From NCBI GenBank assembly GCA_964016885.1, contig OZ024742.1, positions 279,558,001-279,622,000 on the forward strand: a stretch of DNA of 64,000 nucleotides. Direction: 5' to 3'. Position numbers and translations under genes: made by a program. A model generated the notes under the pieces. It did not search any database. It was not told the origin of the DNA and was given only the letters and a program-made list of their open reading frames with translations. This DNA is from Eledone cirrhosa (lineage: Eukaryota). This document shows positions 661 through 64,000 of the stretch, in pieces (the stretch's first letter is position 1; each line of letters starts with the position of its first letter).

Positions 661-997
661 ACGATATTAACAAATGGAAACTATATTTATAAAACCATAT
701 CTATTTCATTATACATATTTCAAGGACACCAACGGGAGCTTCCAATAGTAATGGTTGCATTATTTAAGGGTATGTCAATATTTATTTATAAAACTGCTCT
801 ATATTATATTTTATCTGATGAACGCACACCATAATTTAACTTGGTGTCCTTGAAATATGCATAATTAAATAAATATGGTTTTATAAATATAGTTTCCATT
901 TGTTAATATCGTATTTTTACTCCAATTATTTGTTGAGTGGTTTATATCAGTTATAAAAATGGTTGTTTGTATAACATCAATTTAAATAGAACTTCTA
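661..997. mobile_element. Short non-coding PLE pLTR-derived insertion, inverted pair with 3' ends facing out
   Basis: 661-700 (acgatattaacaaatggaaactatatttataaaaccatat) is the reverse complement of 873-912. The same family occurs at 38802-41545 and 55582-56987. Flanked by (TA)n. Confidence 0.7.
809..866 (+). ncRNA. Degenerate minimal type I hammerhead ribozyme
   Basis: ttat-CTGATGA-acgcacacca...tggtgtcctt-GAAA-tatgc-ataa. The cleavage-site region is mutated relative to the copies at 38853 and 55717. Confidence 0.5.
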
Positions 998-2711
998 CAT
1001 ATATATGTATATATATATATATATATATACTTATATATATATATATATATATATATATATATATATAAGTATGTATATGTACATACAAATATGTATACAG
1101 GCGTACAGTAGTATGTATATACATACATACATACATGCGCACACATATATATATATAGAATTCCCAAGAATCAAAGCTATGTTCAAAGCATTTATTCACT
1201 TACAATTGTTTCATCCAAACCTAGGCTTGGTGTCTTCGGAGCATTTTTCAATGTTTGTACACATAATTGACCTCCTTTCCAACGCAAGAGACATACAGAT
1301 ACATATATATGTATTTTTGTAGAGTGGAGTGGCATATATTATACTATACAATTTTTGTACAGCAATTCAAATTCAAAATCAAAATCAAAATTAAAATACA
1401 TTTGGCAGATAACACAGATAATGCAAGAGGATAGTCTGATAGTCAGATTTAGTAGGTAGTGTATGCGTTAGTTACACGTGGCGCATGCAAGTGTGTCTCA
1501 TTTTTATACTATTATTGTGTGGCAGGGTGTTACACGTAATGCAAGTACTTTAAGCGGGTAAGCAAGATAATTATGTTGGTTGTAGTGGTAAGGTATTCTT
1601 TGTATAGAACAACAAAGTATGTGTGCAGAAAAATAAAAATAAAAAGAAGAAGCAAAAGAAAGTAATGGTTTTCGTATCCACCATCATTTTCACATTCAGA
1701 AGACGAAAGATATGTTTCTACATCCATCACATAAGTAAAGATGATTCCGTATTGAATGTTTGATGCATTAAAATAAATTATTTTAGCGTATTGAAGCTCA
1801 GTATTATTTATTCCAAGTTTTTAGAATAGGTTGATTCTGCTGCGAGAATTTACAGCGGTTTATTACCCGGAAGTATGTGTGTAATTAAGGGGAGTTAATG
1901 CGTAAGGGGAGGTAGCTAGTCGAATCTCATAACTAAATTCATTGTTCTAACCTACATTATAAAGCGCCTCAATTGAGTCCCTTATATAGACGGTTATACA
2001 TTTATATCTAGTTTCCAATTTTAAATACAGTCTACTCTATCATGATGTACTAAAGGTATCTATATTAAGTTGATTTCTCCCTATTATATAGTGCTACAAT
2101 TGAATATTCCATACAAAGTGCCATACCTTTATATCAATGTTCACTGTAAATGCAGTCTACTCTTAGAACATATCAGGGGACCTATTAGAATTTTGTCTAC
2201 ATAAACCCTGGCAAGTTATGGAGCAGCGTATGGCTGTTTGCATGGCAAAACAAAATACATCTCTAGGGCAGACAAATACATCCCTCATTTACAATGTCAT
2301 TAATCTATCCATCAAGTTATACTTGCATATATAATCCATATATAATTCATACATAATTCATTGCAGCGCCCTACATATAAGTTATACAGATCTCTTATGT
2401 TAATAAATTAATCCTATATATATCCAATGTTATCACTCCATACATTTAATTACAAATGCTTAAATAATTCATTGCCGTATCCAGTATTTAAAGTTTATAT
2501 AGCCAGTATTGTATCATTATATAATTATAAGTAATTGAAAGTAGTTATATTAAAAGTAGGTGTTTATGGGGATATTTCTAGGGTATAAAGTTATAGATAG
2601 ATGGAATGATTTGTGTCGAGATAGGGTGGATCAGAAAGTGTGGAGTTGTGGTGTAATGTGTGCCCTTGAGGTGTGGAGTTAGAAGTGGTGATGGGTTCAA
2701 GTCCGACATTG

Positions 2712-3620
2712 TTATATATTGGGTTTAAAGTTTTTGAAGGAGGGCCGGAAGCGGTGCTGGCACGACGCAAACACTTCCCATATTTTTTTATTAAGGAGGT
2801 TATGGTTTGAGAAGATTATAGTATGGGTCTCTAGTAGACAGAGGTTACAGAATTTATTAGGTGGTTTATACGATGCAGCCTTACCTATCAGTTCCCATTG
2901 AAGTGTATAAGATCTATTTCTAGCTGTTAGATAGTGTATGTAGCTAGATAGTGAAGTGGAGTTGGCTAGACTGTGTTTTTTGAAAGAATGGAGGTGTGAA
3001 TTGTATCTGGTTTTGAAGCAGTTCGAAGTAGAGCCCATATAGGTTTCAGAAGAGTGGCTAGTTCTGACGGTGCATGAGTATATCATGTCCTTGATTAAGC
3101 AGTTTTTATCTAAAGGGCAAGTTCTATTAGATCTACAGTTACAATTATTTTGGATGTTAACCTGCCGGTTATTATGTTGTGTAGAAGTCTGGTTGCTAGG
3201 TATTGCGTTATGGCTATGGGGGTAGTCGCTCCTAGCGTTATTGCTTTCACTATTCCTATTACTATTATTACTATTGATATTAGGGTTTGCAGGTATTACG
3301 TTGTTTTGAAGGTTTACCCCCTGCTGTGTTTTAGTTTGTTGGAAGTAATTATTAATTTTTCTTTTATTGCTACTAGCTATGTGGTATGCTATGTTAGGCG
3401 TGGTAGAGTAGGAGATTTTAATGGTGTTTTTACTTATAAGACTATGGTACTTGTGGCCAGATGGGAAGTTTTTTTTATCTAGGAGTGAGAAGAAAGCCTT
3501 AGGTAGGTTGGAAGAGACGTTTAGATTGAAAGGGGGTTGAAAAATGTATTATTTCTTCTTCTATTTTTGTTATTTTTATGTCTGCTGAGTTGCTTCCGTT
3601 TATGGTATTTTGGTGTCCTC
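2712..3620 (-). pseudogene. Penelope-like element 3' fragment (linker plus C-terminal GIY-YIG endonuclease)
   Basis: PPFNLNVSSNLPKAFF linker, CNCRSNRTCPLDKNCL, MIYSCTV...YMGSTSNCFKTRYNSH, CNLCLLE...LLNKK. Frameshifted upstream. Confidence 0.85.
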
Positions 3621-3772
3621 ATTGGTGTGGGTTACGTTTGTTGCCACCCTTCGTACTAGTGTGTGTGTGGTTATTATTTTTATTACTATTTTTCCTCATG
3701 GACATATTGTGCGAAATAATGTTGTAACTATGTGTTTTTATAGGTAGGAACTCGATAGGTAGGAACTCGAAG

Positions 3773-62589: not shown

Positions 62590-62983
62590 GTTAACAAACG
62601 ATGCAGCAACACACACACACATACACAAACGAGACAACTACACACGCACACGCACGCACAGTAGCATTCCACCATACGAACATACTACACTGCCAATACA
62701 GAGGAACTAGGCAACAACACACGCACACACGCACACACTCAAGCGAGACAACAACACACGCACACACACACACAGCAACATTTAACAAACAGGCAGAGAA
62801 TGGACTGACAGCCAGCGCCACCCCACTCCCACATTCGGCCGCTGACCTCTGCCCGACCGACCCCTATTTCACGCGCACGCGCGCTCTGCTGAATACCTCA
62901 GATATTCAAAACAACAAACAGCGGAGGACGCGTTTCGCACCTTTCCGACCGACAACCTTTACCCCACCCCGTGTAAAAAAAAA

Positions 62984-63018
62984 CCCAGTTGATGGATGTG
63001 AATCCGAAATATATAGGG
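62984..63018 (+). ncRNA. Degenerate pLTR hammerhead (partner at ~59494-59530, - strand)
   Basis: ccc..(c/t)TGATG(A)-gatgtgaatcc-GAAA-tata-TA-ggg, reconstructed from the two arms. Confidence 0.5.
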
Positions 63019-64000
63019 ACAATTAAATCTCTCCCAAGGTAACTCTCTCTTGTTGTTATTTTAATTTTATCCTTTATACACTTTCCTTCATTCCTCTACA
63101 CGTCTTATACACACCACGCATCTCAACGTACACCCACTTACATCTCTCTCTCCACCACCGGATCTTGTTACCCGGAGAATTACCCATTTGCATTGCCGAG
63201 GCTTCCAAACGACTTAAAGATATTTACCTATTATTCCACAATGCTTCAAGCAAACTTCAATATTCTCTTATATATATAAATATATATATATATATATATA
63301 TATATATATATATATATATATTTAAAAGAATAGAGGTGTAACACACGAGTTATGATATATTGGTAAAAGGAAAAGAAAGTGCCGACAAATTGTTCCCAGT
63401 GAAAAATAGTTTAATTAGGAATAAGTAAAAATTAATAATAGTATTGGTTAGTATTCAGTTTTGGTTTTAAGTTTTACCCGTTGCATATTTCTAATGATTT
63501 TCAAAAACAATTTTGAGATAGAGCGCCTGTGATGTTTGCTCTAATCTGATTAGTTTTGGAAATTCTACCTGTTTTATGTAAAAAAAAGTGGCTCCAGATG
63601 TATGAACAAATTCTTGTGGTCAAAACAAATTTGATTGGTCGGTAGAGGTCATGTGAATGTCAAAAATTGATTTTGCGCCAAATGTAGGTTTGTCTCGGCT
63701 GATTGAGAAGTCACTGAATAATAAGTCGTTCAAGACAAATATGTGTGTGTGTGTGTGTGTAGTAGTAGTAAAGAGGTTTGTTGTTGTGATAATGGTCAGC
63801 AGGGATGTATATATATATATATATAAATATATATATATATTCGTCATTGTCAGTCTGTTCATCACAATCATTTACACACATTTTATCTTTCGGTCCATTT
63901 TTTACCTGTTAAATCAGATCATGTTCCCTGTTAATAAGAAATGTATTTTCCCTCCTATGTTCCCTATCACCTTGTAATTCTATAGAATTAGATTTGTTCT

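Follow-up and report, generated by a model that had tools for sequence, protein, structure and literature searches.

Seven insertions in a 64,000-nucleotide (nt) stretch of Eledone cirrhosa DNA (assembly GCA_964016885.1, a 3.0-Gb animal genome; contig OZ024742.1, positions 279,558,001 to 279,622,000 of the forward strand; hereafter the window) are ends of Penelope-like elements (PLEs) or non-coding hammerhead tandems, and all are built of two inverted arms whose 3' ends run outward into (TA)n. The arms of an insertion stop at two fixed 3' sites of their family, a near site S and a far site L, which lie 40–170 nt apart and bound a tail carried by the L arm, and 187 of 191 same-family pairs from the genome combine one S arm with one L arm. 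We consider programmed twin priming the probable cause, usually on a single RNA, with one cut DNA end primed at S and the other at L.

The insertions begin at 661, 14812, 38804, 54571, 55582, 57043 and 59290 (self-BLAST and sequence reading). The first-pass annotation had described a minus-sense left arm and a plus-sense right arm with 3' ends in (TA)n, and this holds at 7/7 sites by self-BLAST and by the directions of open reading frames (ORFs) and hammerheads. The arms also stop at different template sites in all seven, with S on the left in six and L on the left in one. The estimate of about five families in that annotation stands: A (661, 38802, 55582), B (14810), C (54565), D (57040) and E (59288). 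Five insertions are ends of protein-coding PLEs of three families and two are retrozyme-like, non-coding tandems. Insertion 54565 is no non-coding passenger but the 3' end of a Neptune-type coding element. It had also been noted for family A that one arm stops at a common site while the other runs further; there are indeed two fixed stops, but the longer 3' end may lie on either side (52 S-left and 48 L-left among 100 pairs).

Queries taken from the 3' part of every family served to examine the rule across the genome, with the best 32–40 candidates of 32–2236 scored per search; 60 loci were widened, and 40 stretches of 10 kb picked by position were added. Template mapping of the first 265 loci and the window gave 391 clusters, or 308 after removal of locus-edge clusters and duplicates, comprising 184 single arms and 124 multi-arm records. 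The latter divide into 100 S+L, 3 S+S, 1 L+L, 16 with an end at neither site and 4 complex records; by eye, several of the 16 are nested or broken by a later insert. Among simple two-arm records with both ends assigned, 100 S+L thus stand against 4 like-with-like (binomial p 5e-25). No simple tail-to-tail pair occurs among the 124 multi-arm records, so orientation is non-random, as had been predicted. A template-free pass over 306 overlapping sequences (1.72 Mb) yielded 1495 TA-bounded segments, 199 of them with both ends at a recognised S or L: 187 S+L, 2 S+S and 2 L+L within a family, and 8 cross-family. The A–E sets of the two tallies overlap. The rule further holds in 73/73 pairs of ten families never used as a query, of which only two have a known sense, via hammerheads, and in 20/20 pairs from the position-picked stretches. 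For end clusters 13, 23, 27, 46 and 58, assignment of an unambiguous S/L pair was not possible, and they were not counted.

The inverted architecture is frequent, though some copies lack it. There are 129 single arms that end at S or L, and (TA)n follows on the 5' side within 8 nt in 33 (true one-armed copies), at 9–45 nt in 13 and not at all in 83, many of these because the template or locus ended. Two of the 13 conceal tiny partners that still conform to the rule, an 11-nt L end in L192 and a 17-nt S end in L050.

The two arms end independently at their 5' sides. The further 5' reach belongs to the S arm in 40 of the 100 pairs and to the L arm in 29 (S nested inside L); 24 pairs, 16 from family C, have nearly equal reach, and another 7 have an L arm confined to the tail plus 12 nt. 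Junctions could be scored in 73/100 pairs. Of these, 36 are flush or overlapping, with at least 2 nt shared in 22/36 as compared to 16% for random joins, and 37 carry extra bases, some copied from nearby. Such short homology with extra bases is consistent with microhomology-mediated end joining. At the 3' stops, the TA-like homology noted earlier amounts to 2–6 nt in TA phase at the eight sites with known continuation, as a (TA)n primer would need; homology of at least 3 nt in TA phase is found at 4–12% of template positions. The 5' ends pile up at −206 to −216 in family C (24/52 ends) and at −363 to −368 in family E (8/42), which is likely the RNA 5' end in these coding families, while in B and D they are scattered round the unit, a pattern expected from a circular or multimeric template. 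Only 1/158 5' ends of families A–D lie within 5 nt of the ribozyme cut, and we discarded the idea of arms ending or joining there.

These extents bear on a published alternative, in which a single complementary DNA (cDNA), or an antisense RNA, bends back at a palindrome and serves as its own template, and the endonuclease resolves the hairpin to leave a one-sided tail (Arkhipova, 2013; Craig, 2021). Such self-priming would account for rare variants common to both arms, for the 29 nested S arms and for the 24 nearly equal 5' ends, and one D junction does sit on a 29-nt palindrome. However, 40 S arms carry 5' sequence absent from the L arm while the tail is on the L arm, and seven further pairs overlap by 12 nt or less, so simple fold-back fails for these 47. 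Moreover, most junctions are non-palindromic, and the equal 5' ends sit at family hot spots that both reverse transcriptases (RTs) could reach through run-off. Fold-back is largely refuted for the non-nested pairs, and we regard it as an unlikely general explanation.

Whether one RNA or two served as template was addressed with rare variants, using arms at least 90% like the reference and non-CpG variants only. Among 185 such variants carried by exactly two arms, 27 fall in partner arms against 2.3 expected, which points to one RNA. A different possibility is that the ends of the break are primed by two ribonucleoproteins that bring separate RNAs, with S and L set by the position of the RT on the cut end. 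Nine head-to-head joins of two families, without a (TA)n array between, fit this (L084, L088, L006, L134, L174, L188, L223, L258 and L203): six are S+L and three S+S (6/8 S+L without L203), and most have sharp junctions. Some partner arms also differ by 5–9%, within an overall divergence of 0–9%. Yet partner arms belong to the same family in 191/199 pairs although at least 15 families are present, as the first-pass annotation implied in treating the arms as one insertion, and private variants are shared by partners 12 times above expectation. Like-with-like pairing is also commoner across families than within them (2/8 versus 4/191, Fisher p 0.02), and the two-family joins may represent later deletions between neighbours. 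Two separate particles are thus improbable as the usual route. L260 and L250 were set aside as candidate two-family joins, both being family C with its own coding arm.

An artefact or rearrangement (long-read fold-back chimeras, DNA transposons resembling miniature inverted-repeat transposable elements (MITEs), or chance neighbours in (TA)n) can be put aside as hardly credible: palindromes and (TA)n are difficult to assemble and many insertions gather in (TA)n tracts, but the arms are diverged by 0–9% and often neither contains the other, the two ends are fixed and stop at the (TA)n edge, the centres are copy-specific, tail-to-tail pairs are absent, and the joints recur in short reads. The opposite-strand joint 62976/63207 is present in Illumina reads of three samples (10, 2 and 2 reads), an L end followed by TA in 100 short reads of X7, and the joint of the D tandem is found in 469, 331 and 233 short reads of three samples. 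Since short reads of other samples contain these features, the shape is no long-read artefact. Identity as a MITE or foldback DNA transposon was rejected on the unequal ends, the variable centres and lengths, and the retroelement ORFs. Read pile-ups at 63021–63024, 59038–59090 and probably 63224 were left unused, since their position at AATT/TTAA makes them likely library cut sites.

Two priming events followed by joining, as the first-pass annotation proposed, remain the best model, and one that also covers the non-coding tandems. In this scheme both strands of the (TA)n target, which is self-complementary, would be nicked by the element protein, and each cut end would prime reverse transcription, one at S and the other at L, usually on a single RNA. 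An RT complex that is asymmetric, and probably a dimer, could sit over the S–L tail and set one active site at each start. Both cDNAs would extend toward the RNA 5' end through an uncut hammerhead, the L-primed cDNA would displace the S-primed one where they overlap, and microhomology-mediated end joining would connect their 3' ends, frequently with the addition of short templated fillers. Failure of one end would leave a one-armed copy. The same machinery may copy tandems B and D in trans, with circular or multimeric RNA as template. Extending this further, we find it somewhat easier to believe than to doubt that endonuclease-bearing (EN+) Penelope elements across clades normally integrate by programmed twin priming, with an asymmetric RT dimer locking the strands to S and L of one RNA, the tail as its footprint, retrozyme tandems written from circular RNA in one step, and occasional two-family chimeras.

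Several observations weigh against twin priming on one RNA. The evidence consists of finished insertions, with no intermediate seen, and any target-site duplication is unreadable inside (TA)n. The extra bases at the 37 junctions are partly noise from divergence, and the arms of the 38802 insertion are only 79% alike. Later gene conversion within the palindrome, or two transcripts made from one source, could also account for the shared variants. Only 14/63 pairs had the partner as nearest arm, in a comparison set with duplicate arms; because these duplicates spoilt the set, this test was replaced by that of shared variants. Both the four like-with-like pairs and the two-family joins (eight plus L203) require two RNAs or a later deletion, and the omitted end clusters include some like-with-like partners. 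A conserved tail hairpin is significant in B and D only, being unsupported in A (z −1.9, −2.0, 0.0), C and E. Finally, for the Poseidon element PAc in vitro, excerpts of the report describe the two strands as alike in start site and the start as non-homologous to the cut DNA, as against the 2–6 nt of TA homology found here (PMC11167929).

By their predicted proteins, families A, C and E are EN+ PLEs, with one ORF that holds an RT and, C-terminally, a GIY-YIG endonuclease (EN), and all three show tandem or inverted pseudo-long terminal repeats (pLTRs) with a tail and 5' truncation. The sense of family A was set by ORF remnants and a 606-aa RT-endonuclease ORF elsewhere in the genome (L182), whose translation contains YRDD and VY..YVG. 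Pfam gave no match for this protein; neither an RWK nor a DKT motif was identified in the L182 ORF, itself 5'-truncated. Its CNCRNKSNC, CDLC and CRH agree with the Hydra-clade pattern in the available text of PMC8557442, which combines a CxCX5C linker with CxxC and CxH close to the end and a (TA)n target, and lacks the CCHH cysteines between GIY and YIG. Family C has a 775-aa ORF in L301 with GxKF, DKG, YLDD and IY..YIG, and CGRSNCGTC and CKGC in L260/L287 correspond to the Neptune criteria (a CX2-5CxxC linker and CCHH in the endonuclease). The clade names Hydra for A and Neptune for C are thus assigned on motifs. Family E matches PF00078 and, weakly, PF01541, with RT preceding EN in L210. Tails measure about 40 nt in E, 62–64 in C, about 70 in D, 88–96 in A, about 156 in B and 40–170 in others.

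The family A insertion at 661 comprises an S arm (661..732, minus) and an L arm (733..997, plus; 733–765 matches family sequence in L089/L215) with a minimal type I hammerhead read at about 807–871 (core CTGATGA at 815). The copy at 38804, of an older subfamily, has an S arm at 38804..40977 (minus) with broken thumb/GIY-YIG coding sequence at 39920–40969 (tblastn 47% to the L182 protein) and an L arm at 40978..41544 (plus) with a 96-nt tail and a hammerhead core at 41371. In the third, the L arm is on the left (55582..56666, minus; tail about 88 nt, hammerhead core at 55768) and meets the S arm (56667..56987, plus) in a flush junction at 56666/56667. Family A has a predicted type I hammerhead near its 3' end. 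Family C, whose sense follows its coding parent, is present as an S arm at 54571..54634 (minus) and an L arm at 54635..54803 (plus; tail 62–64 nt) that begins just 3' of the family's hammerhead, with an AT-rich junction at 54635–54679. The predicted hammerhead of this family has a variant U3-A8 core (37/78 ends of cluster 1). Family E, oriented by its RT/GIY-YIG ORF, has an S arm at 59290..60441 (minus) with a GIY-YIG coding part at 59923–60441 (PF01541 E 0.004, below the cut-off) and an L arm at 60439..63268 (plus; tail 37–42 nt), with GCC common to both arms at the junction. The L arm carries a frameshifted RT-EN ORF (RT 60923–62326, PF00078 E 1.7e-10), and hammerhead-like stems with a non-canonical core lie at about 62984–63017.

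Families B and D fit, from their predicted features, the description of non-LTR retrozymes, in that their tandem units are non-coding and each holds a type I hammerhead. Both were oriented by their hammerheads. The B unit is 593 nt; its S arm (14812..15894, minus) holds 1.8 units, and its L arm (15895..16868, plus) has a tail of about 156 nt (fold z −4.4) and a hammerhead at about 15955–16055 with a U3-A8 core, read by eye and without a match in Rfam. By eye, a U3-A8 pair replaces C3-G8 in the cores of both B (15955–16055) and C (L143 2040–2080). The D unit is 467 nt, with 1.35 units in the S arm (57043..57673, minus), 3.1 in the L arm (57674..59115, plus; hammerheads at 57830, 58297 and 58764) and a 29-nt hairpin between S and L. 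In the window, Rfam detected hammerheads of family D only (HH9 38.6 bits, below the gathering score of 52), and its miRNA matches were dismissed as (TA)n noise. A PLE ORF lies within 900 nt at 1/33 D loci and 1/28 B loci, each with a 45–60% match to the family A protein. At L058 (1450–3086), a younger D pair sits within the tail hairpin of an older D copy.

Other features of the window include a further hammerhead family resembling D (1068–1144 and 3773–4852; core at 4696, minus) with internal TA runs, whose end cluster 13 has four like-with-like segments. Another Hydra-like endonuclease remnant (2712–3548, minus) shares 38% with the family A protein, and a 173-aa ORF at 46169–46690 (minus) reads like the family C endonuclease; Pfam gave no match for the ORFs at 2712, 40242 and 46169. 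A lone family C arm with an L end lies at 12833–13071, and 63322–63807 holds the L end of a further family with S and L sites (J). Three to four long copies in tandem (18908–37859), similar to long interspersed nuclear elements (LINEs), have (TATC)n borders and, in one copy, a 1172-aa ORF, and read like a Tx1-type L1 element. A 389-aa frame at 44460–45629 (minus) reads like the C-terminal part of a non-LTR RT. At 50356–54670, a 2.08-kb unit is duplicated in tandem; the copies are 97% alike and have (TA)n at their borders. A 190-nt family resembling short interspersed nuclear elements (SINEs) occurs at 8114–8309, 14101–14282, 51228–51418, 53308–53498 and 54893–55080, as well as in L023 and L030, where it sits at an identical position within the family A tail. 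Inverted repeats without (TA)n borders lie at 8403–8715, 37868–38188 and 51961–52046.

The origin of tandem and inverted ends, tails and microsatellite bias in PLEs is a question that PMC8557442 raises and that PMC11167929, as far as the excerpts go, does not settle. With the S+L rule, it becomes a matter for a single experiment in an in vitro system that already exists. The rule also provides a sequence signature that marks non-coding passengers (retrozymes) as moved by Penelope enzymes. The 20 pairs in 400 kb of position-picked DNA extrapolate roughly to about 150,000 in the 3.0-Gb genome for recognised families only, which makes the twin-arm route a large source of palindromes.

Much of the shape has been described in EN+ PLEs, as known here from parts of the papers. 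Head-to-head inverted pLTRs, one with an optional 31-bp tail, were attributed to self-priming (PMC3846280), and the same shape, with an often one-ended tail and a (TA)n bias, was reported with a mechanism called undefined (PMC8557442). The likeness extends to the 5'-truncated head-to-head inverted copy, the one-ended tail and the hammerhead near the end (Pen2a_Av, PMC3846280; Fig. 2 of PMC8557442), to (TA)n targets for Neptune, Hydra and Naiad, and to a nonribosomal peptide synthetase (NRPS) gene moved in trans in the same arrangement. In the published elements, the tail is optional, 30–40 bp long and attributed to self-priming or EN resolution, whereas here it is near-obligate on exactly one arm, on either side, and 40–170 nt long, arms may be non-nested or non-overlapping, and three coding lineages and two non-coding tandems share the pattern. 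The inverted shape, the tail and the (TA)n bias are thus already published, and the strict S+L pairing and the one-RNA evidence are added here. No statement of S+L pairing or of a twin-priming model for PLEs was found in the main texts of the literature consulted; Figs S1–S2 of PMC11167929 could bear on it.

For PAc Poseidon in vitro, the available sections describe a PLE protein, a predicted dimer, that nicks and extends both strands on an uncut RNA template, with reverse transcription starting at two RNA sites that bound the tail (PMC11167929). The use of two strands, the two tail-bounding starts, the uncut RNA template, the AT-rich targets and the predicted dimer agree with the scheme proposed here, whereas in those sections the two starts are not linked to the two strands or to an inverted arm (PMC11167929). 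Tandem units that are non-coding and each bear a type I hammerhead are a feature of non-LTR retrozymes too (bioRxiv 10.64898/2026.07.22.740005; PMC7229834), for which PLE enzymes have been proposed. The preprint, in its accessible part, proposes PLE-driven mobility without insertion anatomy, on the grounds of co-occurrence and of trees of pLTRs, and suggests that the tandems are amplified locally (bioRxiv 10.64898/2026.07.22.740005). The tandems here bear the PLE insertion signature, and their arrays were therefore likely written at insertion.

Twin priming of L1 is reportedly credited to Ostertag and Kazazian in 2001. In L1, the two cut strands prime one RNA at two places, which gives a 5' inversion with 3' ends outward, and the 40/29/24/7 spread of 5' reach among the 100 pairs resembles this system (excerpts of PMC9148063). 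The second site in L1 is a chance internal match, used in a minority of copies (PMC9148063), whereas here it is fixed near the first and used routinely, and the arms usually overlap by hundreds of bases.

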